A stretch of 64,000 nucleotides of DNA from an uncultured archaeon. GTDB lineage: Archaea; Iainarchaeota; Iainarchaeia; Iainarchaeales; VGJJ01. The stretch covers positions 768 to 64,767 of the forward strand of contig CAYIIU010000002.1 in assembly GCA_964363635.1 (NCBI GenBank), given 5' to 3'. The position numbers and the translations under genes are program-made. Below are positions 40,042 to 64,000 of this stretch, piece by piece. A model generated the notes under the pieces. It ran no database searches, was not told where the DNA came from, and saw nothing but the letters and a program-made list of their open reading frames with translations. The first letter of the stretch is position 1; the number at the start of each line of letters is the position of its first letter.

Positions 40042-40740
40042 TTATTTTCCAAATCGCCTTTCGCGTGCATCAAATTCTTTCACGGCGACATTCAAGTCTT
40101 CGCGGGAGAATTCGGGCCAGAATTTGTTGGTGAAGTACAATTCGGAATAAACGCTCTGATACGTCAAGAATCCCGATAAGCGCTGGGTTTTTCCCGTGCG
40201 CACAATCATGTCGGGGTCCGAGAAATTGGAATACAAATAATTCTTGAATGAATTTTCATCAATTGAATTCACATTAATCTTTTTGTCTGCCACATCCTGC
40301 GCCAGCTTTTTGGCGGCATCCACAATCTCGGTGCGGCCGTTGTATCCTATGGCGACGTTAATGACGCGTTTGGCGTAATCCTGGCTTTTCTCTTGGATGA
40401 GATTCATTTTTTGGCGCAAATGAAGAGGAAATTTTTCGAGTCTTCCCAAAAACTTGATGGCAAACTCACTTGATTTGTACACTTCGTCTTTCAAAATCTT
40501 ATCAGCTTCCTCTTCGAAAATAGAAAACAAGATGCTCATTTCCGTGCTTGAACGGGTGATGTTTTCCAAGGAGAGCGTGTAGAATGATGCGACTTTGATC
40601 GAAGGGTATTCGCCCAGCCACTGCATGACATCCCAAGAGCGCTGCGTACCCAATTTGTATGCTTCCGCAATGTTCATGTTCGCTTGAGCGGCAAAACGTC
40701 TGTTTCCGTCGGGAATGAATGCGATAGAGGAGAGGGTCAT
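40042..40740 (-). CDS. uppS: cis-Prenyltransferase (undecaprenyl diphosphate synthase family)
   Basis: IAFIPDGNRRFA near the N-terminus, ...IGYNGRTEIVDA..., and RTGKTQRLSGFL with ELYFTNKFWPEF. Confidence 0.9.
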   Translation of the reverse strand: MTLSSIAFIPDGNRRFAAQANMNIAEAYKLGTQRSWDVMQWLGEYPSIKVASFYTLSLENITRSSTEMSILFSIFEEEADKILKDEVYKSSEFAIKFLGRLEKFPLHLRQKMNLIQEKSQDYAKRVINVAIGYNGRTEIVDAAKKLAQDVADKKINVNSIDENSFKNYLYSNFSDPDMIVRTGKTQRLSGFLTYQSVYSELYFTNKFWPEFSREDLNVAVKEFDARERRFGK

Positions 40741-40813
40741 GGTTTCACGTCAGGGGCCGGAGACAAGTGTAGATGAGGTAAGATACTTCCGTTAATATTT
40801 AAAGGCCCATCCC

Positions 40814-41203
40814 GTGAACAAGGTACAACCCTCTGATGGTGCCCCTATGCCCGTAATCGATGAATTGGACTCTCCCGACGCGGGAAAGTGGCTTTCGCCC
40901 GAAGACAAGGCCAAGCTCATTCGAGAGTTGAAAGAACGTTTGAAAGAAATTGAGCGACTCAAACGTGAATTGGGAATGGCCGTGCAGGCGACGCAGGAAA
41001 ATTCTTCCGCCAATTCTTCACCATCAACATCTTCTTCACCGCCCTCAACTGATGATTCTTCGCCTGCGATGGAAGATGATTCATCCCACCCCGTTTCTGC
41101 CGGAAGAGTGGCGGAGGAAGTGGAAGAACTGCACGTTCCCGCGCTGGAAATTCTGGAAGACAAACCTTTTCAAAAGAAAAAGAAAGCGGGAAATGTCACA
41201 TGA
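40814..41203 (+). CDS. Hypothetical acidic, Ser-rich protein
   Basis: 129-aa ORF with a coiled-coil-like KAKLIRELKERLKEIERLKREL and a 4-nt overlap with the next gene. An antisense ORF of similar length exists, so the strand call is tentative. Confidence 0.4.
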   Translation: MNKVQPSDGAPMPVIDELDSPDAGKWLSPEDKAKLIRELKERLKEIERLKRELGMAVQATQENSSANSSPSTSSSPPSTDDSSPAMEDDSSHPVSAGRVAEEVEELHVPALEILEDKPFQKKKKAGNVT

Positions 41204-41592
41204 TTATGAACGAAAAAGCGGGAAAAATGAGGAAAATTATTTCCATCATGGAAAAAAATAAAACGATTCGTTTGCTGCACGTCAAACACGCACGAACATT
41301 TGGGGAACGATTCAAAGGACTTTTAGGTGTGTCGCCGCGCGAGCATGACTATGCGTTAGTGTTTCACATGGCTGAAGAAAGCGCCCTCGGCGCGAGCATT
41401 CACATGCTTTTCATGCAGATGCCCATTGACGTGCTTTGGCTCAATGAAAAAAAAGAAGTGGTTGATTTTGCCGCTCTGAAACCTTGGACATTCAATTACA
41501 CGCCCGCAAAACCCGCGAAATATGTGGTGGAACTTCCCGCACGCACGTTGAATTGGAAAATAAAGATTGGAATGAAATTAACGTGGGCTTGA
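41200..41592 (+). CDS. DUF192-domain protein
   Basis: RLLHVKHARTFGERFKGLLG...MQMPIDVLWLNEKKEVVDF...YVVELPA matches the DUF192 pattern. Confidence 0.7.
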   Translation: MIMNEKAGKMRKIISIMEKNKTIRLLHVKHARTFGERFKGLLGVSPREHDYALVFHMAEESALGASIHMLFMQMPIDVLWLNEKKEVVDFAALKPWTFNYTPAKPAKYVVELPARTLNWKIKIGMKLTWA

Positions 41593-41663: not shown

Positions 41664-41930
41664 GATAGTTACCCGAAACAAATGAGGGGTGAGACGGAGA
41701 ACCATATTGAACGGAGCGCGCGTCTAGTTAATCGTGCGTCCGACGGTTTTGAACCTTGAATGGAAAAATTTCTAGGAAACCAAATAATTACTACATAAGG
41801 CGGTTTTCTCTATTCTTTAAACCCTTCCGGGGGCGTTCGACGTATGGCTTCTACGTTGGCAGGGCAATCCCTTTCTCCGCTGGGGTGGGGGGTTCTACGC
41901 ACTCAAACGCTGTTCGAGGGGTGCTGGCCT

Positions 41931-42851
41931 ATGCTTTCGCGCGAGGAGAATGAACTCGTATGCGGTGTGCTTGAATTATTTTACCAGCTGGATGCAGAAA
42001 AGCAAACCGAGATCGATTTGAGTCGGATGTTGGAGGGGTATTGCACCGCGCATCATGTTCGACTGGATGATGACCAGCGGACGTACGTGCTTTCTATCCT
42101 TGACCAGCATGCGCTGCAAGCCGGGCCATTGACACCGCTGCTCGCCAATCCACACTTGGAGGAAATTACCATCGGTGGGGTTGGACGTGAACACCCGGTG
42201 CGCGTGTACCACATTGAATGCGGGTGGGTGGACACACCCTTGTATTTCTCCGATGAAAACGTGCTCATCACTTTGCTCAACCGACTCGTACTCGCGAGCG
42301 GAAAACGATTGAGTGCGCACACGCCTATTTTGAACGCGCAACTGGGGGGCGGGCATCGCTTGCACGCGTCTATTTCCCCCGTGTGTGCGTCGCGCGTGGA
42401 AGCGAGCATTCGAAAGTATGTGGTGCGTGCTCTCCGTCCGCGTGATTTGCTTTCGACGGGAGTTATTTCTCCCGATGCGTTAGCGTATGTCGTGTTGGCA
42501 TTGCAATCCGATTGCAATTTGTTGATTGTAGGAAACACGGGAAGCGGGAAGACTACTACTCTCAACGCGTTGTTGGGATGCCTTTCTCCGCGTGAAAGGG
42601 TTATTTTGGTTGAAGAAACCCCCGAGCTGCATGTTTCACACGAACACGTGGTGCGACTGACTCCCTCTGCACATGAAAACACATCCATGTCCGTGCTGAT
42701 CCGCGAAACATTGCGCATGCGACCCGATCGTGTCGTGGTGGGGGAGATTCGATTTCCAGAGGAAGCAAGGGCATTCATGGAATCCGTGCTCGCGGGGCAG
42801 GGAAAGGGAACATACACGGGGTTTATGTCAAGTAAAAACCCGTCTTTTTGA
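41931..42851 (+). pseudogene. Type II/IV secretion-family ATPase (FlaI/PilB/VirB11-like), apparently 3'-truncated
   Basis: Walker A is LLIVGNTGSGKTTTLNAL, Asp box ILVEETPEL, Walker B region RMRPDRVVVGEIR. The ORF stops about 25 aa after this (..AGQGKGTYTGFMSSKNPSF*), where homologs continue for a further C-terminal lobe. Composition shifts immediately downstream. Confidence 0.6.
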
Positions 42852-42995
42852 TTCAAAGTACGGTATAAAAAAAAGCACAAGTTTGATGTAATTGGAGAAT
42901 TTATAGATTACTTTCCTGATTGTCATGTACATAAATCCGATCTTTTAATCCTCTTGATTCTGAACTAAAGACGATTATCCGTCTATCATCATTTT

Positions 42996-43139
42996 TTATT
43001 TATTCTCTTCTGGGATGGAGTGGCGAATAATATCCAAATTACATGACTGGTGGGTACTGCACCATTTGTTACATTTCTTTACCCACTTTTTTTCTTTATA
43101 GTATAATTTGCATTCCATGCATTGATATTTTTTGGTCAT
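42996..43139 (-). CDS. Small Cys-rich protein (47 aa), not in the ORF track
   Basis: My own translation is MTKKYQCMECKLYYKEKKWVKKCNKWCSTHQSCNLDIIRHSIPEENK. It has a CxxC plus three further Cys and one His, and begins 5 nt after the multicopper oxidase stop. Confidence 0.45.
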   Translation of the reverse strand: MTKKYQCMECKLYYKEKKWVKKCNKWCSTHQSCNLDIIRHSIPEENK

Positions 43140-43143
43140 CCGT

Positions 43144-44745
43144 TCACTCTACCATGACGGAAGTCATCATTTCTGAGGAAAGGTGCTCTGCAATGTGGCA
43201 GTGGAGCATCCATTCTCCCGGGTTGGTGAATTCTACGAGCAATTCTACTTCTTCTCCTTGTGGAATTAAGACCGTGTCTTTCCAAACCAAGTGCTGATTT
43301 GTTTTCCCATTTTGGGTTAATACGAGAAATCTGTTTCCGTGTAAGTGAATGGGGTGTTGCATGGGGTGAGAGGATTCGGACAAATTTTTGATACGAATTT
43401 TTTTGATGTCTCCTTTTTTTACGTTCCAATTAAAATCCATGTTTTCTTTTTTTGTTTTTTCGTCTCGAATAATCCATGTGACTTCTTCATTTGTGGTAAT
43501 GGCATTTACTCCTTCCATTTCGTCTTCCCATTCGATCGTGCTTTGTTCCGTGTGCCCCATTCCTTGTTTCATTTCCATTCCGCCGTGCTGCATATTTTTC
43601 ATCATTGTATCCATGACCGGCCAACGAATCGTTAATTCGTATGTTTGGGCAACGGGATCATCAAAATATTCCCTATATTGTTCAATGTCAGCCTGAGCTT
43701 CAAGATTTGCCTCGAGATTCAGCGTTTGATTTTCGCCGCTATTTTCCTTTATTTGGAATTTTGCCAATATTGTTTTGGCAACCGGTGTATCATTTGTCAA
43801 CATATACTCTCCTGGATTTTGGAATACCACATCAATAATAGCTCTTTCCGATGGTGCCAAAATAATTTCGTTTGTTAAAAATGGTTGGCCGAATTTTCCA
43901 ACATCTGCACCAACAGATTTTATTTTAGCACCCGAAATGGTTAATCGGTAGGGGCGAACATTGCTTGTGTTCAACAAGTATAGTCTATTTATCGTATTTG
44001 CGTTCAGGGATAAGGAATAATCCGTTTTTCCATTTACTAGAAACGTGTTGCCGAATCGGCCCATTACTGCAAAATTGGTTTCCTTTTCTGGAAAGGGGGC
44101 AATTTGATTATTTTCCATGCGAATATCATCAATCACGAGAACGTTTTCAGTGTAGACGGGCTCGCCTTCTGCTGACGAAACGAGGATGGCCCCATATAAC
44201 CCCAGTTCCTGCTGCATGTCTTCCCGCACATGAGGGTGGTACCAAAATAATCCTTCATCGGGAAAATCGAGCGTGTACGTGAAGGATTCTCCCGGCAAAA
44301 CTTCTTCCTGTGTGACCCCGGGGACACCGTCGTTTTTATTTTCCAATCGGAGACCATGCCAGTGAACGGTGGTAGGTTTGTCAATGTTGTTCGTGAATTG
44401 GACCGTTATTCGGTCTCCTTTTTTTACTTTGATGAGGGGCCCGGGAATTTGTTGGTTATACGCATAACCGTAAACCGTTTTTCCGCCAATTTCATATTGC
44501 ACGATTTCCGCACTCAAGGCAAATGTGGAACCGGTTTCCAGTTTGGCCTCTCTTGCCGGGAGAAGTTCAACGTATTTTCCAGGCAAATATACGTCCCCAA
44601 CGTTATATCCTGGATAAGGGTCATTGGATTGATTGACAATCGGTGTTTGGTTATTGAGAAAAAAGAATGCAGCGATTCCAATCAGCAATACTCCTGCCAG
44701 AATTATCGGCCATTGGCTTGGTAGTGTTTTCAATTCGTGCTTCAT
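43144..44745 (-). CDS. Multicopper oxidase (CopA/CueO-like)
   Basis: Copper-ligand motifs are TVHWHGLRL, WYHPHV, HPIHLHG and HCHIAEHLSSEMM. An N-terminal TM or signal segment is present. Confidence 0.9.
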   Translation of the reverse strand: MKHELKTLPSQWPIILAGVLLIGIAAFFFLNNQTPIVNQSNDPYPGYNVGDVYLPGKYVELLPAREAKLETGSTFALSAEIVQYEIGGKTVYGYAYNQQIPGPLIKVKKGDRITVQFTNNIDKPTTVHWHGLRLENKNDGVPGVTQEEVLPGESFTYTLDFPDEGLFWYHPHVREDMQQELGLYGAILVSSAEGEPVYTENVLVIDDIRMENNQIAPFPEKETNFAVMGRFGNTFLVNGKTDYSLSLNANTINRLYLLNTSNVRPYRLTISGAKIKSVGADVGKFGQPFLTNEIILAPSERAIIDVVFQNPGEYMLTNDTPVAKTILAKFQIKENSGENQTLNLEANLEAQADIEQYREYFDDPVAQTYELTIRWPVMDTMMKNMQHGGMEMKQGMGHTEQSTIEWEDEMEGVNAITTNEEVTWIIRDEKTKKENMDFNWNVKKGDIKKIRIKNLSESSHPMQHPIHLHGNRFLVLTQNGKTNQHLVWKDTVLIPQGEEVELLVEFTNPGEWMLHCHIAEHLSSEMMTSVMVE

Positions 44746-45173
44746 TTCACCACCTCAATCGTCCCTTTAAACATTTTCATCGAGCAATGAAAAGGAAATT
44801 TTCCTGATTTATCGGGAGTAAACTCGATGAGAGTTTCTCCTTGCGCGGGTGCTAGTTTTCGAACCTTGTATTCGGGAAAAATTATTTCATGACCGCACGC
44901 GGCACCCGCGTCGACTGAAAAGTGAATCCGAACCGGAATTCCTTTCTTTACCGTCAAAAAGTTTGGTTCGTATGTTCCAAATTCGGTTGCTTTGAGAAAA
45001 ACATCCTGCTTGCCATCTACAATAGGAGGAAGGGATAAAACGCCGTTGGAAGAAGGGGTTGTTTTTTCGGTCGTTTTTCCCGTTGGAGTAGCTGTTGCAC
45101 TTATCATTAAGAATATCCCAATAATGATGGCAATTCCCATTCCGATTACGATTTGTTTTTGGTCCATCCGCAT
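44742..45173 (-). CDS. Cupredoxin-like domain protein
   Basis: It has an N-terminal TM helix and the C-terminal FPFHCSMKMFKGTIEVV plus an upstream GAACGHE, a type-1 copper-like ligand pattern. A 4-nt overlap links it to the MCO gene. Confidence 0.75.
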   Translation of the reverse strand: MRMDQKQIVIGMGIAIIIGIFLMISATATPTGKTTEKTTPSSNGVLSLPPIVDGKQDVFLKATEFGTYEPNFLTVKKGIPVRIHFSVDAGAACGHEIIFPEYKVRKLAPAQGETLIEFTPDKSGKFPFHCSMKMFKGTIEVVK

Positions 45174-45180
45174 TCCTCCA

Positions 45181-45663
45181 TTATTTATTCACGTTATACT
45201 CGTTTACTTTCTTCGACTTGAAAAAACCAAGCGTTGGTAATCGGATACACTTTTTGGTCCATTGAAAATAAAAAAAGAGTAAAAACAATCCAATGGAAAC
45301 GATTCCTAAAAAAGGTCGCAAAGGTTCAATCGTTGAAAGGATGAAAGGGAAACCCAACGCGGCGACCAATAGATAATTACAGATGGGGCATGCAAAGGAT
45401 ATGAATCCAGCAACCGAAGCAACGCCAATCGGAAGATTTGTTTTAGGTTGGTTTGAAAAAGATAGGTAAAACGCTAGTAACCCGCTTATGATTACTAAAA
45501 ACGCATAATCAAGCAGGGTAGCCGGAACCATTCTCACATACTGAATAATGGGATTGGGTATGAGCGCTGTCGGAGTTCCAAATAATAAGACAAGTCCAAT
45601 CCAAAGCGCAAAAAAAACAAGGAACGGCTTCATTTTTTCCAATAAAAAAGGAGTTGATTTCAT
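45181..45663 (-). CDS. Polytopic membrane protein with an intramembrane CxxC
   Basis: About 5 TM helices. It contains FACPICNYLLVAALGFPF and is a distant paralog of 46276..46731 (VAQCPACASLGALFLPL). Confidence 0.6.
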   Translation of the reverse strand: MKSTPFLLEKMKPFLVFFALWIGLVLLFGTPTALIPNPIIQYVRMVPATLLDYAFLVIISGLLAFYLSFSNQPKTNLPIGVASVAGFISFACPICNYLLVAALGFPFILSTIEPLRPFLGIVSIGLFLLFFYFQWTKKCIRLPTLGFFKSKKVNEYNVNK

Positions 45664-46283
45664 GCAGACTCTTCTATAGTTTCGAGTCGAATCGTGTATT
45701 TGTCTCCCTCACGGATAACTCGGTTTTCAAATTCCGTGTTTTCTTTTCCGTTCACTAAAAAGACCATTTTGGTTAATGTTTCTCCATTTGCACACGTGTC
45801 TCCAATCTTTTTTCCATTAAATTCATTGGCATTGAAAGTCGTTCCAAGTCGTTGAATAAACTTTCCCAACGTAATCTGTTCAGGGGTGGCCGCTGCACCC
45901 TCGACATGAATTCGCTGATCATCATGCGTGTGTAGGAGGTGGTCAACGATGGGGGCATTGGGAATAATGTACGGTTGGCCGCACACGCTGGCTTCTAAGT
46001 CCGCGTGCCAATGCACGTTTCCGGTTGGAAACTGCATTCCTTCAATATTGAGCAATGTTTTAGGAGTATTGCCATTTGCATTTAGAATTCCGCTGGCAAG
46101 CACGGCAACACCGAGACCCAGAATCAAAACGATAAGGATAGGAATTTTCCATTTCGTTAAAATGGGGTTAGGTTGTCTTTCCGCGGGCATTGTTTCCGGG
46201 TGCTTGGCCTTCCGATGCATGGAAAGCGCGTCCGCGTTGGAGAATGATTTTTGGCACTTGTCACAGCTGTTTTCTTCACTCAT
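45660..46283 (-). CDS. C2H2 zinc-finger - TM - extracytoplasmic HWHA-domain protein
   Basis: CDKCQKSFSNADALSMHRKAKH fits C-x2-C-x12-H-x4-H. It is followed by the TM helix IPILIVLILGLGVAVLASGIL and the domain VHWHADLEASVCGQPY...HTHDDQRIHVEG, which is shared with 48548..49459. Confidence 0.65.
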   Translation of the reverse strand: MSEENSCDKCQKSFSNADALSMHRKAKHPETMPAERQPNPILTKWKIPILIVLILGLGVAVLASGILNANGNTPKTLLNIEGMQFPTGNVHWHADLEASVCGQPYIIPNAPIVDHLLHTHDDQRIHVEGAAATPEQITLGKFIQRLGTTFNANEFNGKKIGDTCANGETLTKMVFLVNGKENTEFENRVIREGDKYTIRLETIEESA

Positions 46284-46731
46284 TTTTGAATGCTCCCAAA
46301 TAGTTCAACGTGAAAACGAGCAAGACGATGCTGGCAAGTGTAATGTATGTTCCATAGGTGGCTAAGAAATTTATTGCGGATAGAGGGAGGAATAATGCGC
46401 CTAAGGATGCGCATGCCGGACATTGAGCGACTAAAAAAGTTCCCATGGTTCCAAATCCAGTGGTTCCCGTTCCAACCATTCGTTCATTGGTTGAACATGT
46501 ACCTGGTTTTTTCCATAAACTGATTTGATACGATAACGTGACTCCGAATAATAGTGAAAAGAGCATGGTTAATGCTAAATTTAGTGGAGGAACCGATGCA
46601 AACCACACTCCCAAATTTTCTATAATCCCCAATACTTGAGTATAGGTATAGAGAGCAAACATGGTCAGACTAGCGAGGAGGGCGATTCCCGCGTAACGCG
46701 GATGGGCGAGTACGCGGAATAATCTAACCAT
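46276..46731 (-). CDS. Polytopic membrane protein with an intramembrane CxxC
   Basis: About 4-5 TM helices with FLVAQCPACASLGALFLPL. Confidence 0.6.
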   Translation of the reverse strand: MVRLFRVLAHPRYAGIALLASLTMFALYTYTQVLGIIENLGVWFASVPPLNLALTMLFSLLFGVTLSYQISLWKKPGTCSTNERMVGTGTTGFGTMGTFLVAQCPACASLGALFLPLSAINFLATYGTYITLASIVLLVFTLNYLGAFKNE

Positions 46732-46749
46732 GTTTTACTCCCTAAAGCA

Positions 46750-47562
46750 TCATTCGAGCGACTGGATGGCCTGTTGAAATACCGTGTACGGTTGGGCTCC
46801 CACGATGAGTTTTCCAGTTCCATCGGCTTTTCCTAGGAAAAACCCGGGTGTTCCCGTTATTCCAACGCTGCCGCCTTCACTGAAGTTGGCCTGAATTTCA
46901 TTGGAGTATTTGTTATCGCCCACGCACTGGTCGAACGTTGTCGAGTTGAGACCAATTTCGGCACCCCATTTCTTGATGTCCGTTGCCGTGTAATCTTGGA
47001 CGGTTCCTTGTCCTTTCTTGTCTTGTTCGACAAAGATTTTGTCGTGCATTTCCCAATATTTTCCTTGGTCGCTCGCGCAGCGTGCCGCGTTTGCGTAAGG
47101 GATAGCCATCGGATGAAAACTAAGCGGGAAGTCCTTGTAGACCAGTTTTACTTTTCCAGTATCAATGTAATCCTTTTGTAAATTTCCTTTTACATCGTTA
47201 AACCATTTCCTACAAAAGGGACACTGATAATCTGAATATTCTACGAGAACAATTGGCGCATCCGATTTTCCAAGTGTTGCGGCCGCATTTTTGACTAACT
47301 CACTCATTTGAGCGGTTGGTGCGGGTGCGGATGGCGGATTTAAATTGCCAGATGGAGCCGTTGGAAGATTGTTTCCCCCCGTGTTTCCTCCGCCTTGAAT
47401 GCTTAAACCATTTAGCCCAGTAGTGAGCGCGCTCGCGGCAGTTATCATTGAATACCCTACAACCACGGCGGCCAGGAGGATGCTCATGGATAGAATTATT
47501 TCAGGTGATATCGTGTTTTCCTTTTTGTGATGAATGGGTGCTAATCCCTCATGTTCAGTCAT
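46750..47562 (-). CDS. DsbA-family thiol:disulfide oxidoreductase (membrane-anchored)
   Basis: The thioredoxin active site is YSDYQCPFCRKW. There is an N-terminal TM helix and a C-terminal GTPGFFLG. Confidence 0.85.
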   Translation of the reverse strand: MTEHEGLAPIHHKKENTISPEIILSMSILLAAVVVGYSMITAASALTTGLNGLSIQGGGNTGGNNLPTAPSGNLNPPSAPAPTAQMSELVKNAAATLGKSDAPIVLVEYSDYQCPFCRKWFNDVKGNLQKDYIDTGKVKLVYKDFPLSFHPMAIPYANAARCASDQGKYWEMHDKIFVEQDKKGQGTVQDYTATDIKKWGAEIGLNSTTFDQCVGDNKYSNEIQANFSEGGSVGITGTPGFFLGKADGTGKLIVGAQPYTVFQQAIQSLE

Positions 47563-47843
47563 TTAGTATCTCCCTCCATGGGTTGACAAATTAAAGTGCA
47601 CTTTACATTGTTTGGTCCAACTTTGTTTTCAGAAAAACTGATGGTCATTCCACTGGAAGAGGATACTTCTGTGGTGGGTTTGTATTCTAGAAAAACGGTG
47701 CTCGATTCATGGTTATCGAGCGATACCATTATTTTAGTCATTGAATTATCTGTCGGGTTTGAAGTGAGTCCTAATCCGATAGCCATGATTGCAAGAACGA
47801 GTACACTCAGTATGCCAATGGGGAGATAATTTTCGGGTTCCAT
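47559..47843 (-). CDS. Small membrane-anchored hypothetical protein
   Basis: 94 aa with an N-terminal TM helix and a 4-nt overlap with the dsbA-like gene. Confidence 0.45.
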   Translation of the reverse strand: MEPENYLPIGILSVLVLAIMAIGLGLTSNPTDNSMTKIMVSLDNHESSTVFLEYKPTTEVSSSSGMTISFSENKVGPNNVKCTLICQPMEGDTK

Positions 47844-47918
47844 ACCAAATCTAATGTAACCTTAATGTATCCATATATTTAACTCTTATGGTGGCTTGAT
47901 AGGAATAGGTGATCTTGA

Positions 47919-48215
47919 ATGGCACTGCCACTATTATTTTGGGTGACCACATTATTCTTTGTCGTGGCGCTTTATCTTACGTTTAAACTTTCGCGTGAGG
48001 TGAAAGGGGAACATTACTGGATTTTCTTTTCGGTGGGCATTATTGGCTTTGCCATCACACACTTTGCCACTGTCCCAGGGTTATTGGGATTGAGTGCAGA
48101 TACCTTGGATACACTGCATGAACTTGGGGAAATTGTTGGGGCATTCGCTCTAGCGTACGCGAGCTACGGATTGTATTCTTCGCTTAAGCACATTCGGAAA
48201 CGATTGGCGGAGTAA
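47919..48215 (+). CDS. Three-TM hypothetical membrane protein
   Basis: 98 aa with three hydrophobic helices, upstream of a wHTH gene. Confidence 0.5.
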   Translation: MALPLLFWVTTLFFVVALYLTFKLSREVKGEHYWIFFSVGIIGFAITHFATVPGLLGLSADTLDTLHELGEIVGAFALAYASYGLYSSLKHIRKRLAE

Positions 48216-48224
48216 AAGTTTCAC

Positions 48225-48491
48225 ATGAAGTCCGTTCTTTTCTATTGGGGAAAAGGCGCCGATACCCGCGTTGCCATCATCAAAACAATTGGTGTATGTA
48301 ACGAACGAAAGGAGCCGTGTTTTCTCAATCAGATTGCCCAAGCCAATAATCTATCGCACGTCGCAATAATGAAACATTTGTCCCTGTTGATGGAGGAAGG
48401 GTACGTGCGAGAGCTCAACCCGGACGGAAAACCAATATATCTTGAGTTGACTGAAAATGGGAAAAAAATTCTGCGAGAATTCACCAAATAA
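48225..48491 (+). CDS. ArsR-like winged-helix regulator
   Basis: NQIAQANNLSHVAIMKHLSLLMEEGYVRELNPDGKPIYLELTENG. Confidence 0.65.
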   Translation: MKSVLFYWGKGADTRVAIIKTIGVCNERKEPCFLNQIAQANNLSHVAIMKHLSLLMEEGYVRELNPDGKPIYLELTENGKKILREFTK

Positions 48492-48547
48492 TCCTTTTTG
48501 GTAGCTGAAACGAGTCTCTAACGAAGCACCATGTTTTTAAGGAACGG

Positions 48548-49459
48548 TTGGGCATGGGGATGAGTTCATTCGGAAAAAATATTATGAGAAACAATATTCC
48601 AAGCATCGGATTGATTTTAGTTGCTATCCTTTTCATTGGTATAGCCACTAACATGACGTTTGCTCATGAAGGCGAAGAAGACGAAAATGGAATGGAAATA
48701 ATCGAGGAAAACACAACGGCCGCAGCCATCCCTCATCTTGCTGAGCAGTTGAAAGAATGGTCACTGGAAGTAGCCATTGTCGCACTTATCCTCATTATCC
48801 TTCTCGCAGAGTATGCTGTTAAAAAAAATCCACGAAAAGAAAAAGTAAAACGACTATTATTTGGAAGCATGATTGGTATAGGAATTATTTCCACTGTCTT
48901 TTTGGCGGGGGGAACCATTTACTTGAACATTGTTTCCGCGACTAGCGGTCCCGTTCACTGGCATGCCGATTATGAAGTGTGGAATTGCAATGAGCGACTT
49001 GACTTGATTGACCCGGAAGGGTTTTCCAACAAACAGGGAGAAGAAACGATTCATGAACACAACGATGATCGTGCGCACGTGGAAGGAGTGCTCATCGATT
49101 TGCACGATGCCAGTTATCATCGTTATTTTGAGATAATTGGAGCCAAAATGGACGCACGCGGAATGACCTATCCAGCCAACACGGGAGACGTTTTCATGCC
49201 TCGAAAGGGAACCTGTAATGGAGAGCCGGCGGAAATCCAGGGATTTTTATTTCGAGTCAAAAATCCTGAAGAGGCCCAAAAATGGGAATATGAACAAACA
49301 AAAATACCCTACCCCTACAAAGAAATTGTTTCGCCATATGGAAATGTTCCACCGGGGGACTGCCTAATCATCGAATACGGGCCCCTAAAAGAAAAAACCG
49401 AGCACATCTGCGCCTCCTACAAAGTAGCCGAGCAACGGGGGGACCTAAATGGCCGTTGA
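48548..49459 (+). CDS. Membrane protein with an extracytoplasmic HWHA domain (paralog of the 45660..46283 C-terminal domain)
   Basis: PVHWHADYEVWNCNERLDL...ETIHEHNDDRAHVEGV follows TM helices and an acidic HEGEEDENG segment. Confidence 0.6.
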   Translation: MGMGMSSFGKNIMRNNIPSIGLILVAILFIGIATNMTFAHEGEEDENGMEIIEENTTAAAIPHLAEQLKEWSLEVAIVALILIILLAEYAVKKNPRKEKVKRLLFGSMIGIGIISTVFLAGGTIYLNIVSATSGPVHWHADYEVWNCNERLDLIDPEGFSNKQGEETIHEHNDDRAHVEGVLIDLHDASYHRYFEIIGAKMDARGMTYPANTGDVFMPRKGTCNGEPAEIQGFLFRVKNPEEAQKWEYEQTKIPYPYKEIVSPYGNVPPGDCLIIEYGPLKEKTEHICASYKVAEQRGDLNGR

Positions 49460-50159
49460 AGCATTCCTGCCAACCCTTGGAACAGTTGTCGTTACAGCCG
49501 CCATTGATTCCATTAATCCCTGTGCCATCGGAGTATTGATTCTCATGGTTTCCGTTTTGGTCGGAAAAAAGAAAAACACGCGAGAAATGCTATTCTTTGG
49601 AGGAATGTACATTGCGGCAGTATACGTGACCTACCTCCTCGCCGGACTAGGACTAATGTATTTTCTATCCAGCATTCCGCTATGGATATCCGAGTACATC
49701 TCTATCGCTGTCGGTTTAATTGTCATTTTTGCGGGATTCCTTGAGATAAAAGATTTCTTTTGGTATGGAAAAGGATTCTCGCTCCAAATACCACCCCAAT
49801 ATGCGAGTAAAATTAACAAATACGCGGAAAACGTGACACTACCCGGAGTCATATTCTTAGGAGTATTCGTGGCAGGAGTCGAACTACCATGCACGGGAGC
49901 CCCCTACCTTGCCATTATCGCTCTTTTATCTCAAAACTTTGACACCACGGCCTTCCTCTATCTGCTCATATACAATCTTATTTTTGTAGCCCCGCTAATT
50001 TTTATTTTGGTGGCAGTCGCCATGGGACAAAAATTATCGGTGTTCAAAAAGTGGAAACAGGAAAACAGAGGATACATGCGCTTGGCCATTGGAATCATGC
50101 TCATCGCAATGGGTTGGCTGCTTATCCTGATTGCAAACGGGACCATTAACTTGGGGTAA
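49449..50159 (+). CDS. CcdA/DsbD-family transmembrane thiol electron transporter
   Basis: About 6 TM helices with conserved Cys in TM1 (DSINPCAIGVL) and TM4 (VELPCTGAPY). Confidence 0.75.
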   Translation: MAVEAFLPTLGTVVVTAAIDSINPCAIGVLILMVSVLVGKKKNTREMLFFGGMYIAAVYVTYLLAGLGLMYFLSSIPLWISEYISIAVGLIVIFAGFLEIKDFFWYGKGFSLQIPPQYASKINKYAENVTLPGVIFLGVFVAGVELPCTGAPYLAIIALLSQNFDTTAFLYLLIYNLIFVAPLIFILVAVAMGQKLSVFKKWKQENRGYMRLAIGIMLIAMGWLLILIANGTINLG

Positions 50160-50166
50160 TGTAAAA

Positions 50167-50472
50167 ATGACAAAAACTAAATCAAAGCTCCGAAAGTTTG
50201 CCTATCGGCACATCGTCAAACGCCACGGACACTCGGAAAAATTTGACGAGCGAAAAATTTATGCCAGCGTCTATGAAGCCGCACATGTAGCACTGTTATC
50301 CACGAAGCAAGCCGAAAAAATAGCATCCAGCGTTTCCAATCACCTCAAAAAGTTGGTAGAAAAGAAAGATACAGTCAACGCGAAAGAAATACATAAACAA
50401 ACCGTGAAAGAACTCAAAAAACACCATGCGGAAGTCGCATTCATGTATGACACCCACAAAGATATATGCTGA
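50167..50472 (+). CDS. Stand-alone ATP-cone domain protein
   Basis: HIVKRHGHSEKFDERKIYASVYEAA...KEIHKQTVKELKK follows the ATP-cone pattern (V.KR.G..E.F...KI). I trimmed the start to ATG 50167. Confidence 0.55.
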   Translation: MTKTKSKLRKFAYRHIVKRHGHSEKFDERKIYASVYEAAHVALLSTKQAEKIASSVSNHLKKLVEKKDTVNAKEIHKQTVKELKKHHAEVAFMYDTHKDIC

Positions 50473-53315: not shown

Positions 53316-53615
53316 ATGAAGAAAAATCTAGGAATAATGTTAGCAGTATTGTTGCTCGGTTCGTTTGTGGCTGCGCAAACACCAGGGAATATTACCACCA
53401 TTACGGAGCCCATCAATCGAATCTATGATTTAGTCAAAGCTGTCGTATCCATTTTGGGAATCATCGCCATTACTATCGCTGGAGCCCACTATATGTTTTC
53501 GGGAAGCAATATTCAGACCCGTGAAAACGCCAAATCGATGGCATCGTATGCGGTCGTAGGATTAGTGCTGGTATGGGTTGCCCCGTTAGTTGTAACCTAT
53601 CTCACCGCCCCCTAG
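53316..53615 (+). CDS. TrbC/VirB2-like conjugative pilin candidate
   Basis: 99 aa. The signal peptide is MKKNLGIMLAVLLLGSFVAAQ, followed by two hydrophobic helices separated by a short polar loop (YMFSGSNIQTRENAKS). It is the first gene of the T4SS-like cluster. Confidence 0.6.
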   Translation: MKKNLGIMLAVLLLGSFVAAQTPGNITTITEPINRIYDLVKAVVSILGIIAITIAGAHYMFSGSNIQTRENAKSMASYAVVGLVLVWVAPLVVTYLTAP

Positions 53616-53619
53616 GGAG

Positions 53620-54660
53620 ATGATCCGGTCTATGAAAAAACTCTACGAAATCCTACTCCCACTCTTCATTACCGGACTTCTCTTCGTCACGCCCAGCGTA
53701 CACGCCCAAGGAGGTGGAAGCGGTGGTGGAGTCATCAACATTAACATCGATGTACAGGGAATTATCAATGCGATCAATGGTCTCGGCTTCGGATTAGGCG
53801 GAACACTCGGAAATATTCCAAGTCAAGTGCTGGGTATTTTTGGGAACGCATTCAAAGGTTCATTAATCTCATTCAACGATCCGCTCATGCAATTCTCCCA
53901 AACATTACTTACATCCAACCCCGACCCAAACGGACTTTATCCATGGTGGCAATCGACCATCTTAGTCATTTCATCGTTCTATCTCTTGCTCTTCCTTGTG
54001 ATTGGATTCATGTTTCTCTTTTCGTCCATCAATCCCGAGAAACGAATGGAAGCGAAAGAGTGGCTCAAGAATGCCTTCGTGATGATTGTTCTCGTCAATT
54101 TGTCCTTCGTATTGTATTCGTTAATCTTGGAATTAGCGACTGCCATTACCCAATTCATGTGGATTAGCGGTTTCCAAAACTTTTTCGACCCACAAGTATT
54201 TTCCAACATGGGCGCCGGAATGTTGCTGACATACGGTTTAGCGGTTTTACTTACTGCCGTAACATTATTCCTTCGACACATTTTCCTTCTCATTGGAGTC
54301 GTTCTCTTTCCCATCGCCATTTTCCTCTACTTTGTTCCTCCACTAAAAGTTTGGGGCCGAATGATATTCAACCTCATCGGCATCGCACTATTCACACAAT
54401 TTATTGACGTAGTCATTTTTGTTGCGAGCAATCAAGCCATGATTCAATTTGCAGGAAACGCGGGCGCAAATAGTGTTCCCGCTCTCGCATTCATTCTCAT
54501 CTTCATTGTGAATGTTCTTCTCATGGTTTACGCCGTGCTGAAATCTGTTTTCAGTATGACTGAAAATTCTAAAGTGTTAGGATATGCGGTTGGCGTCATG
54601 TCCGGGCAAATTAGTACGGCACTATCTGGCCTAAAGTTGGGCGCGGGGAGCGCGAAGTAG
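53620..54660 (+). CDS. VirB6/TrbL/CedA-like polytopic membrane protein
   Basis: 346 aa with a signal-like N-terminus, a Gly-rich exposed segment (QGGGSGGGVININ...), and about 6-7 TM helices. Confidence 0.55.
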   Translation: MIRSMKKLYEILLPLFITGLLFVTPSVHAQGGGSGGGVININIDVQGIINAINGLGFGLGGTLGNIPSQVLGIFGNAFKGSLISFNDPLMQFSQTLLTSNPDPNGLYPWWQSTILVISSFYLLLFLVIGFMFLFSSINPEKRMEAKEWLKNAFVMIVLVNLSFVLYSLILELATAITQFMWISGFQNFFDPQVFSNMGAGMLLTYGLAVLLTAVTLFLRHIFLLIGVVLFPIAIFLYFVPPLKVWGRMIFNLIGIALFTQFIDVVIFVASNQAMIQFAGNAGANSVPALAFILIFIVNVLLMVYAVLKSVFSMTENSKVLGYAVGVMSGQISTALSGLKLGAGSAK

Positions 54661-54673
54661 TTGGAGGCGTCCT

Positions 54674-55528
54674 ATGTCGTATGAAATCCCCAAAAACATT
54701 CGTTACCAAGAAAAAGTCGTCTTCAACCTCAGCTTCGAACAATCATTCTGGGTGGCCCTTTTTGGCATCCTAACCTTCACCGTATTCTTCAAACTTCCCC
54801 TTATTTTTGAAGTCCGAATAGCCATCAGCATCTTTTTCGTTATTCTCGCGGTAGGATTTGCCTTTTTTGATTTTCGCACCCGCGCAACCAATTTGTATGC
54901 TTTCATCTCAACCCCACGAGAAATGGGTTATATGGACCCTAAAATGGCCAAATTTTTAGAAATAAATAGAATCGAAAATGACACGGTTTACTTGAATAAT
55001 GGTAGCCTAAAATCCCTCATTCACGTCCAACCCATCAATTTCCACATCCTATCCGTGCGACAAAAGCAAGCCATTATCGCGGCGTACAAAGACTTCCTCA
55101 ACAGCCTAGACTTTCCCATCCAAATCGTCATGCGAACCGTGAGCCTAAACCTAGACGATTACCTCAAGCAACTCGAACTAAAGGTTCGAAAGCAGAAAAA
55201 ACCTCACTTAATCAACCAGTTCGTAGACTTTGAAGCCTTCATGCGAAAATACATCGAAGAAAACAGCGTCAAAAATAGACTATTTTACATCGTCATCCCT
55301 TACACTTCAAGCAAAAATCCCCTTGAAGCCAAAACGAATCCACTCGAACAATTAGAAATTCGCGTGAAACTCTGCCAAGAAAAACTAAAACATTGCAACC
55401 TCATAACGAAAAGACTCTCCACCAACGAACTGACTTCCCTATTAGCATCATACTTTGAAGGATTCATCGAAGCAGAAAACGAATACCAAAAGACACTCGT
55501 TGTTTTACAAAAGGAGGTAGCCAAATGA
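54674..55528 (+). CDS. PrgI/VirB3-like membrane protein with an extended C-terminal domain
   Basis: MSYEIPKNIRYQEKVVFNLSFEQSFWVALFG matches the PrgI-family N-terminus (..P..I....K.v.gLt..Q). Two TM helices follow. A 4-nt overlap links it to the VirB4-like gene. Confidence 0.6.
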   Translation: MSYEIPKNIRYQEKVVFNLSFEQSFWVALFGILTFTVFFKLPLIFEVRIAISIFFVILAVGFAFFDFRTRATNLYAFISTPREMGYMDPKMAKFLEINRIENDTVYLNNGSLKSLIHVQPINFHILSVRQKQAIIAAYKDFLNSLDFPIQIVMRTVSLNLDDYLKQLELKVRKQKKPHLINQFVDFEAFMRKYIEENSVKNRLFYIVIPYTSSKNPLEAKTNPLEQLEIRVKLCQEKLKHCNLITKRLSTNELTSLLASYFEGFIEAENEYQKTLVVLQKEVAK

Positions 55529-57774
55529 AGAACTTAGTTGAGTTGCTAAAACCGTCGTACATTCATAATCAAGCCGATTCTATTCAAGTGAATGAACAAT
55601 TTAACCGTATCATTATGGCTGTAGGCTATCCTCGTGCGATTCGAGAAGGATGGTTAGATTCAATCATTGCGAGTGAGGGAAACTTTGATCTAAGCCTGCA
55701 CATTACTCCCTCAAATGTTGAATCCATTTTAACACAGCTCAATCAAGAGTTAGTCAAGCAAGAAGCCGATTTGATGGGTGCTCAAATGAAGGGAATTGTG
55801 AACCCTTCACTACGATTACAACACCAAGACACGCTGAATGTTTTAGAAAAACTCCAAAAAGGAGAAGAAAAGTTATTCAATCTGTCTCTTTACCTCAATG
55901 CACGAGCCTACACGAAAGACAAGCTCGAATTGCTTACACGAAAAGTTATCACTGAACTCAATTCGATTCTCATTATCCCCAAAATGCCTTTTTTGCGAAT
56001 GTATGATGGACTCAAATCCATTTTTCCCATTCAAGAAGACAAACTAAAAATCACGCGAAACATTCCGAGCGATGCTTTAAGCGCTTGTTTCCCTTTCACT
56101 ACCGCCTTCCTCAATCTGGACAGCGAGGGAATCCTATTCGGGCTAAATAAATCTAACAACATCCCCATTATTCTTGACCCGTACCGTTTTGCCAACTACA
56201 ACGGACTCATTTTAGGAACGTCCGGCAGCGGAAAAAGCGTTACCGCCAAACTATTCATCCTCCGAAACCTATTACGAGGCGTAAAAACAATGATTATTGA
56301 CCCGCAAGGAGAATACGTCGAACTAACCCAAAAATACAATGGTCAAGTCGTCGAAATTTCTCGAGAAAGTGAAACCATCATCAATCCTTTTGATTTAATG
56401 GATCAAGATTTGGGAGAAAAAATGCTCTCCCTAATGGATTTATTCAAAATCATGTGCGGGGACCTCACGGAAGTCCAAAAAAATATTTTAGATAAAGCTA
56501 TGCAGAAAGTGTACGAACAAAAAGGAATCATTTACAACAATCCCGAAACGTGGAACAAAACTCCTCCAATTATGGAAGACTTGTATACCGAGCTTTTGCG
56601 TGAGAAAAAAACAGCCACGAAACAAGAACGAATGACATACGAAGCGTTAGAGAATCGTATCCGCATCTATGCCAAAGGAACGTTTTCATTCATCAACAAG
56701 CAGACAAACCTCGATTTGTCTAATGATTTAATTTGCTTCAACATCGCCCAAATGCCCAACCAAATCAAACCAGTCATGATGTACCTCGTCATGGACTTTG
56801 TTCACAAAAAAATGCAAAAAGACCGAGAGAGAAAAGCGCTCATCATCGACGAAGCATGGACACTTTTACGCTTCGCCGAACACTCCAAACACATTTTCGA
56901 ATTAATTAAAACCGCCCGAAAATTTGGATTAGGAATACTCATCCTCACTCAAGAAGTAGGGGACTTGATTTCGAGCGAAGCGGGAAAAACAATTCTTGCG
57001 AACACCAGCTGGAAGTTTTTAGCGAGACAAGAACCAACCGTCATCGAAGAATTAAGTCAAAAATTCAACCTCAACAGCGAAGAACAAAACTATTTACTGA
57101 CAGCTATGCCTGGAGAAGGATTACTGTTTGCGATGAACGACCACATCCCCCTCAAAGTGGTTCCCTCCCCAAGCGAATACGAACTTATCACCACGAATCC
57201 GGATGAAGTAAAAGCTCGCGAGTTAAAATTCAAAAAGTTAGGTGAGAAAGAGCCGGAGAATATGCATCCATACCAGAAAGAAAAGAAATATTATTTGAAA
57301 AAAGAACTTACGATTGATCAAATAGAGTTTCTCAAGCAAAACGACTACCATGAAATACGATTATGCGGGTTGGACAATTTTTCGCAATGGTATTTAGTCA
57401 AAAAACCAGACTCTAGCGAAAGTTTGGAACACCAATTCATGGTACAAATTATCGCAGATGAAATTCTAAAGCACACGCAAGAAATCAGCATATATGCTAG
57501 CACGGGACCCGACATTCTCGTATGGGTCCCCAAAAAAGATAATCCTGATTTTGGCGAGTCCATTGCTATCGAAATCGAAACAGGTACCCAACTCAAAACA
57601 CCTGGAGATTTAGCGAATAAGGTCGCTCAAAATAACTTCCAAAAATACAAGGAATGGTGGTTTGTCGTAACGAACAAGGATGACAAGAAAGAATACGAAA
57701 AATACCACCAAACCATGACTCGAACAGAGATTAAGCCTTTTTTGGAGCGATTATTTAATGGTAAACCAACATAG
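55525..57774 (+). CDS. VirB4/TraE/CedB-class conjugation ATPase with a C-terminal PD-(D/E)xK-like domain
   Basis: Walker A is LILGTSGSGKSVTAKL and Walker B is KALIIDEAWTLL. GLGILILTQEVGDL is also present. The C-terminal ~140 aa carry ESLEHQF...GPDILVWV...IAIEIETG. Confidence 0.85.
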   Translation: MKNLVELLKPSYIHNQADSIQVNEQFNRIIMAVGYPRAIREGWLDSIIASEGNFDLSLHITPSNVESILTQLNQELVKQEADLMGAQMKGIVNPSLRLQHQDTLNVLEKLQKGEEKLFNLSLYLNARAYTKDKLELLTRKVITELNSILIIPKMPFLRMYDGLKSIFPIQEDKLKITRNIPSDALSACFPFTTAFLNLDSEGILFGLNKSNNIPIILDPYRFANYNGLILGTSGSGKSVTAKLFILRNLLRGVKTMIIDPQGEYVELTQKYNGQVVEISRESETIINPFDLMDQDLGEKMLSLMDLFKIMCGDLTEVQKNILDKAMQKVYEQKGIIYNNPETWNKTPPIMEDLYTELLREKKTATKQERMTYEALENRIRIYAKGTFSFINKQTNLDLSNDLICFNIAQMPNQIKPVMMYLVMDFVHKKMQKDRERKALIIDEAWTLLRFAEHSKHIFELIKTARKFGLGILILTQEVGDLISSEAGKTILANTSWKFLARQEPTVIEELSQKFNLNSEEQNYLLTAMPGEGLLFAMNDHIPLKVVPSPSEYELITTNPDEVKARELKFKKLGEKEPENMHPYQKEKKYYLKKELTIDQIEFLKQNDYHEIRLCGLDNFSQWYLVKKPDSSESLEHQFMVQIIADEILKHTQEISIYASTGPDILVWVPKKDNPDFGESIAIEIETGTQLKTPGDLANKVAQNNFQKYKEWWFVVTNKDDKKEYEKYHQTMTRTEIKPFLERLFNGKPT

Positions 57775-57816: not shown

Positions 57817-58449
57817 ATGAGTTATTCGTTGCTAGTCCGAAAACTTCTCGGTCGAGAAAATCGATACATCCCAGACGATGAATTAGCCGCATATTGCAAA
57901 TCGATTGGAATAACCTACACGAAGGCGGTCAATTACTTGGGAAAATACCATTACATTGACCGTATCCTTCGAGGATTCTTCTATATTCCAAGCATCGAAG
58001 AACGAAAACTAAAATCGGGTTTCCCAAACCCTTATGAAGCGATTGCCAAAGCAATGGAATATAAGAAAGTCAAAAACTGGTACTTCGGACTCGAAACGGG
58101 CATTAAACTCAATAACATTACTCATGAATCGTTTACTGTCGACTACGTGGTTTCCGACACAATTTTTCGTCCAAAACCAATTACTATCCTGGGTCGAAAA
58201 GTAAAGTTTGTCAAACTGAAAAAAAATCTCTTTAGCTTCGGCATCATTGAAAACGGAAGCTGGCGTTACTCCGATCTTGAAAAAAGCCTGCTCGACATCA
58301 TTCACATCCGAAAATATAACGGAAAAAGCGACAAAGCCATCATTGACGAGCTCATTGAATGGGGAGAACACGCGTCAAAGAAGAAGCTTAAAGAATATGC
58401 GAAACACTATCCACTATTTGTCCGCAAGGTCGCAGGTGAACTTAGATGA
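57817..58449 (+). CDS. AbiEi-like antitoxin / transcriptional regulator (type IV TA)
   Basis: 210 aa with a 4-nt overlap with the AbiEii-like gene. The N-terminal DDELAAYCKSIGITYTKAVNYLGKYHYIDRILRGFFYIP is wHTH-like. Confidence 0.55.
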   Translation: MSYSLLVRKLLGRENRYIPDDELAAYCKSIGITYTKAVNYLGKYHYIDRILRGFFYIPSIEERKLKSGFPNPYEAIAKAMEYKKVKNWYFGLETGIKLNNITHESFTVDYVVSDTIFRPKPITILGRKVKFVKLKKNLFSFGIIENGSWRYSDLEKSLLDIIHIRKYNGKSDKAIIDELIEWGEHASKKKLKEYAKHYPLFVRKVAGELR

Positions 58450-59474
58450 TTGAAAAAGGACTCATTGACTGGATATCTCGGGACAAGGGGATTGTGAACC
58501 GCGAATTAATCGAAAAAGACCTATTACTCCAAGGATTACTGGTTAGCCTTGCTAAATCCGATTATTTCAAGCGCAATTATGCATTCAAAGGGGGAACCTG
58601 TCTTACCAAAGCCTATTTCGGATACTATCGCTTTTCCGAAGATCTCGATTTTACCTGGATGCACCCCCAAATGTTCGAAAACCTTTCAGGAAAAGGCGTG
58701 AGAAAAAAATTAACCCAAGAAGTCAACCAAATACTAGCCCTACTAGAAACAAGTGCTAAAGAAGTAGGACTCGATTTCAAACCCGAAAAATCAAATGACC
58801 ATTATACTCAATTTGGAGGCGGAAAACGATTCGCCACCTTCAAATGCTGGTACAAATCAACGACTACTGAAAGCGAATCGTTCATCAAAATCCAAATCAA
58901 TTTTGTTGAATTGCTCATATATTCCCCAAAAATAATGGATATAAAACCACTTTACTCTCGGGGATCCCGAGAATTGGAAGTATTATATCCCGATAATAGC
59001 GGCTTAGCAACTCGCCGCGCCGAATTATTTGTATATGACATACGAGAAATAGCAGCTGAAAAAATTCGGGCCATACTCACCCGAAAAGGGATCAAAGCAC
59101 GCGATTATATCGATTTATACATCCTTGACCAAAAGCAGACCCCTATTTCGAGTGTTTTAGAAGCTGCCATGAAAAAGACCCTCTTTATGCTCGACTACGA
59201 AAAATATGCTCAAAACCTTTTTGAAAAGAAATTCGACCAAAAAACAGAATTAGGAAAGGAAGAAAATCTCCTGATAAACCCAGTCGAAAAAGGCTTTCCA
59301 ATCTATACTGAAAAAGCCCAAAAAATACTCGCCAACGCGGCGGAAACCCTGCGAAATGAATACACGAAAACTAAATCATGGAGCGAACTAACCAAACCAT
59401 TGAAAAGAGCCAAAAAGAAAGTACGAGAAGAAGATGTCGTGGATTTAGTTCATCGAATAAGAAAAGAAAAATGA
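58446..59474 (+). CDS. AbiEii/AbiGii-family nucleotidyltransferase toxin
   Basis: YAFKGGTCLTKAYFGYYRFSEDLDFTW is the GG...(S/T)EDLDF NTase core, and a downstream KIRAILTRKGIKARDYIDLY is present. Confidence 0.8.
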   Translation: MIEKGLIDWISRDKGIVNRELIEKDLLLQGLLVSLAKSDYFKRNYAFKGGTCLTKAYFGYYRFSEDLDFTWMHPQMFENLSGKGVRKKLTQEVNQILALLETSAKEVGLDFKPEKSNDHYTQFGGGKRFATFKCWYKSTTTESESFIKIQINFVELLIYSPKIMDIKPLYSRGSRELEVLYPDNSGLATRRAELFVYDIREIAAEKIRAILTRKGIKARDYIDLYILDQKQTPISSVLEAAMKKTLFMLDYEKYAQNLFEKKFDQKTELGKEENLLINPVEKGFPIYTEKAQKILANAAETLRNEYTKTKSWSELTKPLKRAKKKVREEDVVDLVHRIRKEK

Positions 59475-63989: not shown

Positions 63990-64000
63990 TCTACTCCCAC

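Follow-up and report, generated by a model that had tools for sequence, protein, structure and literature searches.

The interrupted ATPase gene and its missing 3' part

The window analysed here is a 64,000-nucleotide stretch (C2:768-64767) of a 1.29-Mb MAG in 60 contigs (89.6% complete, 1.25% contamination), and carries on its forward strand the 5' part of a TadA/CpaF/FlaI-like ATPase gene (41844..42851; 335 aa). Upstream lies a host flank comprising a UPP synthase gene on the reverse strand and genes for a 129-aa acidic protein and a DUF192 protein (40042..41592), in an order conserved with relatives that have the ATPase gene unbroken. A first-pass annotation of this DNA had recognized a secretion ATPase from its Walker A motif, Asp box and Walker B motif, an assignment borne out by the motifs read directly from the ORF (Walker A GNTGSGKTT, Asp-box region VEETPEL, Walker B RMRPDRVVVGEIR) and by a match to Pfam T2SSE (PF00437; E = 9.8e-28, 97.3 bits against a cut-off of 24.9). 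The named homologues of the ATPase are from Candidatus Iainarchaeum / Diapherotrites, of the DPANN lineage. The ORF and its early stop are real. Position 41931, previously given as the start, is the internal Met30 of the frame, and because residues upstream of it are conserved in an alignment of orthologues (LGWG, with W15 invariant), a start at 41844 is likelier. The stop lies 32 aa past GEIR and 11 codons past AGQGKGTY.

The ORF ends in ...AGQGKGTYTGFMSSKNPSF followed by the stop codon, and is composite; codons 1-324 are host-derived, as far as GQGKGTY, and are followed by 11 element codons (TGFMSSKNPSF) and the stop. Most of the nearest homologues (60-77% identical) are 447-485 aa long, and identity to orthologues of this length is 73-77% over the N-terminal part. 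Past AGQGKGTY the orthologues continue with ATFHGHS... for ~135 further residues, and the closest solved structures (afGspE 2OAP, CpaF and FlaI) align well past the ATPase stop, which falls inside the catalytic domain. The His box and the C-terminal catalytic part are incomplete in the window ORF. The view that the gene is truncated at a compositional boundary is therefore upheld, given orthologues of ~447-485 aa and a fall in G+C content from 46.1% to 41.2% at the junction, as is the description of the DNA after the stop as A/T-rich (42852-42995; 144 nt at ~34-39% G+C). The end of the Pfam match was discarded as a measure of the truncation: it lies at profile position 236 of 370 in the window ORF, and since full-length paralogues in the same genome also end their T2SSE matches at ~239-263 it is uninformative on this point, the truncation being shown by the orthologues. 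A frameshift or read-through at the stop was likewise discarded, as the ATPase is not continued in any of the three frames past 42851.

The first-pass annotation had offered, as an alternative, that the 3' part might lie at the far junction of an island, to be sought elsewhere in the genome, and this is where we found it. The last 136 codons (325-460) are intact on contig C19 (14809-15232), beside an integrase gene. A tblastn search with the C-termini of orthologues gave a sole match, C19:14810-15256 on the forward strand (46-69% identity, E down to 4e-54), which is stop-free; the C-termini of the genome's own paralogues returned only the paralogues themselves and did not find the 3' part. At the junction the C19 frame reads stop-HVAHV-KGTYSTFHGHSSAEALSRLRQFG... 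and is open to the normal stop, which overlaps (ATGA) the start of a T2SSF platform gene (503 aa), the operon partner of the split ATPase. A 271-aa PAC2 gene and a 1530-aa gene follow, and the order 3' ATPase part, T2SSF, PAC2 is the same as in relatives with an unbroken gene. G+C content is 48.7% in this C19 flank and 46.1% in the left flank.

Both junctions carry the same 12-nt core, AAAGGGAACATA. The attL copy (42803..42814, equal to C2:43570-43581) spans codons K321-G-T-Y324 of the ATPase, and the identical attR copy is at C19:14809-14820. With both strands considered, the repeat occurs twice in the 1.29-Mb genome, once per junction, against ~0.15 occurrences expected by chance. Joining the two flanks at AAAGGGAACATA yields an uninterrupted 460-aa protein that is collinear with the orthologues and in which alone the His box and C-terminal catalytic part are complete; its residues 47-408 align to afGspE 2OAP (E = 7e-41), followed by CpaF and FlaI. 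Neither half of the gene contains stops, and dividing C-part by N-part identity gives 0.80, compared with 0.82 +/- 0.08 in intact orthologues. This normal ratio and the stop-free 3' half fit either a recent integration or a maintained reversibility.

The joined protein resembles TadA/CpaF, afGspE (2OAP) and FlaI in its Walker A, Asp box, Walker B and TFHG half of the His box, and in having a T2SSF gene next to it. It differs from the TadA/CpaF/FlaI families in that all NCBIfam matches are below their cut-offs (the best, TadA, scores 166.6 bits against 373), in that the first His-box histidine is replaced by glutamine throughout the orthologue group (AGQ, not TGH), and in that the platform protein is a single 503-aa fusion. 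Other systems of this kind are present in the genome; intact ATPase and platform operons occur on C3, C37 and C12, and there are two more ATPase genes. Four of the five other T2SSE-family ATPase genes contain inteins (on C3, C27, C12 and C47, in frames of 809, 1000, 679 and 1289 aa, respectively). Those on C12 and C47 follow the IED/QED Asp box, and those on C3 and C27 directly follow TGHxG, within one or two codons of the position corresponding to the crossover after GQGKG. Two unrelated kinds of mobile element, inteins in the paralogues and the island described below, therefore home to the same motif.

Extent and gene content of the inserted DNA

On the basis of G+C content and gene content, the left portion of the integrated element extends from 42815 to the end of the window at 64000 and on to the end of C2 (22,038 nt), and the right portion occupies C19:1-14808 (14.8 kb). 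The inserted DNA thus amounts to at least 36.8 kb at 41% G+C (41.2% on C2, 41.6% on C19), with a gap of unassembled length between the two parts; no overlap of the C2 end with the C19 start was detected down to 21 nt. We infer the full length and unity of the element from a relative in a second genome, G002, described below.

The left arm of the element (42815..42851, forward strand) encodes the 11-aa tail of the truncated ORF. It contains a hairpin, ACGGG-GTTTA...TAAAA-CCCGT (42816-42850; -9.1 kcal/mol), which is followed by a T-run (CTTTTT) right at the end of the truncated ORF. The left arm in G002 has a hairpin of different sequence at the same place. This structure may be a terminator of the truncated transcript or a recombinase-binding feature. 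Also within the left arm is ATGTCA, the inverse of a TGACAT found at the element's right end; in the predicted attP the two form an inverted pair around the core. The right arms of the elements have in common TATATAA-N3-GAC(A/T)TG, 11 nt ahead of AAGGG. Three short homologues of the ATPase (333-337 aa) end in a common tail, TGF(M/I)S.K.P.F, which reads TGFMSSKNPSF in the window ORF, TGFMSSKNPLNHSKKRN in P0002 and TGFISCKLPLF in P0026. On sequence grounds this tail is the translated left arm of the element and not host DNA.

The right portion ends in a tyrosine integrase gene (C19:13392-14747, reverse strand; 451 aa) that starts ~60 nt inside attR and is directed away from the junction. The product has a Phage_integrase match (59.7 bits), a SAM-like domain and C-terminal Zn-ribbon domains, and residues R194, K220, H305, R308, W331 and Y341 are invariant in an alignment of five homologues. 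Its best NCBIfam match, XerA_Arch, is far below cut-off, and the integrase is accordingly not a Xer orthologue. Scans with the integrase recovered the G002 copy alone from genome contigs, distant recombinases only (21-29% identity) from viral contigs, and one more attR (L029) together with three more distant integrases from metagenome contigs; the attP form was found in none of the viral or metagenome contigs. Elsewhere in the host genome, four more members of this broad tyrosine integrase family are encoded on contigs C9, C15 and C38 (29-36% identity to the island's enzyme), and homologues of parts of the G002 element are present among the genes at 13.4-15.6 kb on C9 and at the C35 end. This small genome seems, from such matches, to hold several related integrated elements.

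The element part on C2 begins with a Cys-rich small ORF (42996..43139, reverse strand; 47 aa, no Pfam match), the last gene before attL. Next to it are genes for a multicopper oxidase (533 aa) and a cupredoxin protein (143 aa), encoded on the reverse strand (43144..45173) and regarded as cargo, and a thiol-redox/metal module (45181..50472) comprising a DsbA-like thioredoxin, a C2H2 membrane protein, a SfLAP-family membrane protein, a wHTH protein and an ATP-cone protein. Small HTH regulators are also encoded in the C2 part. A T4SS-like module follows on the forward strand (53316..57774), with a VirB2/TrbC pilin (T4SS_pilin), a VirB6/TrbL-like protein, a PrgI/TraC-like protein and a VirB4-like ATPase (749 aa; TraG P-loop/DUF87/AAA_10). 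Beyond this module, a domain match identifies an AbiEii-type nucleotidyltransferase toxin (58446..59474, forward strand) as defence or stabilisation cargo. The C19 part encodes an ArdC-like/M78 protein, a subtilase, a large surface protein, a PLD nuclease, a protein with HATPase_c_3 and HSDR_N domains, and an endonuclease-domain protein.

The mating-pore genes, namely VirB4, membrane components and a pilin, are present as the same set in the G002 element and in a further element in genome G061. A Pfam scan of ~45 element ORFs, with part of the element unassembled, recognized neither a relaxase nor a VirD4-type coupling protein, and the putative label 'conjugative' rests on the VirB2/B6/B3-like/B4 set. 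The T4SS-like region of the window is 72-78% identical to that of the G002 element at the nucleotide level, and the VirB4 proteins are 82-90% identical. The G002 element has no counterpart of the copper/thiol-redox cargo (43144-50472), which in the window lies in the ~10 kb separating attL from the T4SS-like module; in G002 the pilin gene begins ~1.3 kb from attL. This absence marks the region as a variable cargo slot. A second T4SS-like module is present on contig C46 of the host genome (7.4 kb, 41% G+C), with a VirB4 that is 87.5% identical to that of the window at the protein level and 82% identical over 3 kb of DNA. The C46 module could belong to another, related element or to a strain variant binned together with this genome.

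Occupied and empty sites in related genomes

The unoccupied form of the locus is found in relative L015, the ATPase of which is 68% identical. Here the whole locus is uninterrupted on one contig, in the order UPP synthase (reverse strand), small gene, DUF192, ATPase (473 aa), T2SSF (514 aa), PAC2 and a 1529-aa gene (reverse strand), which equates to the left flank on C2 joined directly to the right flank on C19. Within the genus, a single full-length ATPase frame (447-481 aa) is present in at least 13 of the 16 other genomes, including that with the closest ATPase (G013, 76%), and one more reads through a TGA. In the remaining genomes of the genus the gene is split (G002), cut by a contig end (one genome) or absent (one genome). 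The first-pass annotation had reasoned that equally short orthologues would speak for a naturally short enzyme; those of the same genus are full length. Across the order, the 3' region of the ATPase gene is present in 167 of 196 genomes.

The closest parallel to the insertion is in G002 (GCA_043803765.1), in which the same left flank leads to a truncated gene of 337 aa followed by TrbC, TrbL_3, TraC-like and VirB4 genes, and the 3' ATPase fragment is on another contig, adjoining a 451-aa integrase gene. The two G002 contigs overlap end to end by 140 nt, which equals k-1 for k = 141 and gives an element of ~35.5 kb. Its integrase is 92% identical to that of the window element, and the N-terminus of its VirB4 is 82% identical. 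At the right end, the DNA of the two elements has 86% identity across the 1.7-kb integrase region and is nearly identical over ~100 nt beside the junction. By comparison, the UPP synthases of the two hosts are 72% identical and their ATPases 53%. The elements are therefore more alike than their hosts, indicating horizontal spread.

Splitting at the same codons is also seen in G061, from another family of the order, in which the 5' part ends in GQGKGSIF and a stop, with VirB4- and PrgI-like genes at attL, and the 3' part is on another contig adjoining a 49%-identical integrase at attR. Genome G131 and metagenome contig L029 have the same attR arrangement. On the left side, the first 28 nt of the arm in L012 are identical to those of the window element, and the left arms in G002 and L016 are related to it. 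When the 196 genomes were searched with the integrase, the five best matches (E <= 1e-109, at least 49% identity) all abutted a 3' fragment of the ATPase gene, with the break at the K-G-(T/S)-Y codons in four of these five. Among the matches listed, the weaker integrases (at most 41% identity) are at other coordinates, with the possible exception of a 53%-identical partial match in G134.

One of the associations departs from the common site. In G192 (L024; G192:C81:2023-3894) a 49%-identical integrase lies beside a 3' fragment that starts ~60 codons upstream, near the PEI of the Asp box. This break may reflect a deletion or the use of another target within the gene, and its position means that the choice of site is not absolutely fixed. 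The 5' halves of the gene in G131 and G192, both incomplete genomes, were not found at E <= 1e-50. In L017 (P0043; positions 3080-3400 of a contig of GCA_053535975.1) an orthologue is cut at the same codon and ends in the tail ISRIGAC and a stop, with the contig ending 640 nt later. The arm that follows the cut is unrelated; a TTTTTAGGCACTAC-like motif is present in it three times, possibly as arm-type sites of a different element.

Origin and consequences of the interruption

What interrupts the ATPase gene is an insertion that has direct repeats at its borders and a dedicated integrase at one junction; relatives have the site unoccupied. Recombination took place within the 12-nt identity AAAGGGAACATA, at the K-G-T-Y codons just past AGQG in the His-box region. 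The interruption is very probably due to the integration of a mobile element into this TadA/CpaF/FlaI-like type IV filament ATPase gene, in an archaeon of the Iainarchaeia (Diapherotrites, DPANN). The recombinase would be the element's own tyrosine integrase, acting between the His-box codons and a predicted attP of the form ...TGACATGTAGCGCATGT-AAAGGGAACATA-CACGGGGTTTATGTCA... The target was probably chosen because this stretch is among the most conserved of the gene's nucleotides across hosts, like tRNA genes elsewhere. In the integrated state the ATPase would be without the second His-box motif (TFHG) and its last 136 residues, ~30% of the protein and within the catalytic fold, so that the product is predicted to be inactive. 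The platform gene would in addition be separated from its own promoter by the element, and with both effects combined one filament system should be off. Precise excision, to judge from the joined flanks, would rebuild both the ATPase gene and the operon.

We considered whether the island might instead be an old, immobilized remnant, in which a one-off integration has left a dead integrase and an ATPase that is permanently dead and decaying. Three other ATPase/platform operons are kept, so the loss may be tolerated, and no relaxase or coupling protein was recognized in the Pfam scans. Decay of this kind is unlikely, however, for a gene whose halves are both stop-free and whose 3' half is without excess divergence, beside an integrase that is full length with all of its catalytic residues. 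The closest relative, G013, keeps an intact gene, and the 92%-identical integrase and near-identical right end in G002, set against 72% for the UPP synthase, point to recent horizontal spread. Given the intact integrase and the cross-species similarity, a fixed dead island is less likely than a mobile element. A chimeric join at 42.85 kb, or the binning of C2 and C19 from different organisms, is hardly credible even though the genome is a 60-contig MAG with some contamination and the two contigs are not physically joined. The same attL arm (28 nt identical) is present in L012, an independent assembly, and homologous junctions occur in G002, G061, G131 and L029. The flanks match one continuous locus in relatives, and a repeat unique to both junctions would not arise from a chimera. 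The recurrence of the junction in independent assemblies likewise tells against the sequencing or assembly artefact that had been entertained when the truncation was first noticed.

There is next to no chance, in our estimation, that the ATPase is a naturally short, degenerate enzyme or the product of a purposely split gene that is reassembled, for example by a split intein. The break falls inside the catalytic domain of the solved homologues, and at least 13 of the 16 other genomes of the genus have a continuous gene. An intact 3' half in this very genome also speaks against a short enzyme, and close to the junction the 3' fragment lacks a start codon in frame. The three homologues of 333-337 aa with a similar tail could be taken to favour a short enzyme, but that tail comes from the element, whose conserved left arm encodes it, and not from the host. 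The inteins in four paralogous ATPases, two of them at the homologous position, had prompted the idea of a split intein or split gene; the tail lacks intein N-terminal features, and the idea was discarded because the tail is element DNA that is conserved together with the element. The interruption is thus attributed to site-specific integration of an ICE-like element rather than to decay or an assembly artefact.

Elements that interrupt a gene and restore it on excision include skin in sigK of Bacillus, those in nifD, fdxN and hupL of Anabaena, and the comK prophage of Listeria. The present element resembles the skin/sigK type in that a recombinase-encoding element lies inside a functional gene with both halves intact, and precise excision would be expected to rebuild the ORF (460 aa). 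It differs in being ICE-like rather than a defective prophage and in having an archaeal host, and the likeness is one of outcome. Among archaeal elements the nearest comparison is with the ICEs of Thaumarchaeota, which have a tyrosine integrase, att direct repeats, VirB4/VirB6/VirB3-type genes, multicopper-oxidase cargo and no recognisable relaxase (Krupovic et al., 2019, PMC6563490; Abby et al., 2018, PMC5797428). All of these traits, as well as large size, are found in the element described here, again with no relaxase recognized. The Thaumarchaeota ICEs target tRNA genes, intergenic DNA and 3'-distal gene ends (Krupovic et al., 2019, PMC6563490), whereas here the crossover is at codon 321-324 of 460, 70% of the way through the gene, and the lost 30% is not replaced. 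The element further differs from them in its DPANN host and in its small VirB2/VirB6/PrgI/VirB4 set, without their listed VirD4 and pilus genes. The T4SS-like module itself is similar to the Patescibacteria (CPR)/monoderm-type T4SS (Quinonero-Coronel et al., 2025, PMC12102498), with T4SS_pilin, TrbL_3/VirB6-like, PrgI/TraC-like and VirB4 genes in the same order, and is unlike it in belonging to an archaeal host and lying inside an integrase-bounded element.

The element therefore belongs to a known, ICE-like kind, and it is the target that is notable and recurrent. A limited literature search found no description of delimited ICEs in Diapherotrites/Iainarchaeota. These results set the bounds of an archaeal genomic island and identify its integrase and its two att sites, together with an empty site and a relative of the element closed at 35.5 kb. 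They also define a predicted attP/attB pair for the element and its integrase. For the annotation of these MAGs, it follows that truncated ATPase calls of ~335 aa represent insertion junctions and not degenerate enzymes.

A more speculative reading, which we consider quite unlikely, is that this ICE family, by integrating and excising, reversibly switches a Tad-like surface filament of DPANN archaea off and on. If so, the integrated element would silence the operon and could thereby block superinfection or pilus-dependent viruses, or alter attachment to host cells. Excision would rebuild the operon, such that the contact filament would be made exactly when the element is ready for transfer, and the integrase clade would have co-evolved with this gene, at a motif also targeted by inteins in the paralogues.

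In at least four Iainarchaeia families, a dedicated integrase clade targets one type IV filament ATPase gene at its His-box codons, and breaks the gene rather than restoring it. That the unusual VirB2/VirB6/PrgI/VirB4 machine found in DPANN archaea is carried by a site-specific mobile element supports a probable role for this machine in DNA transfer.
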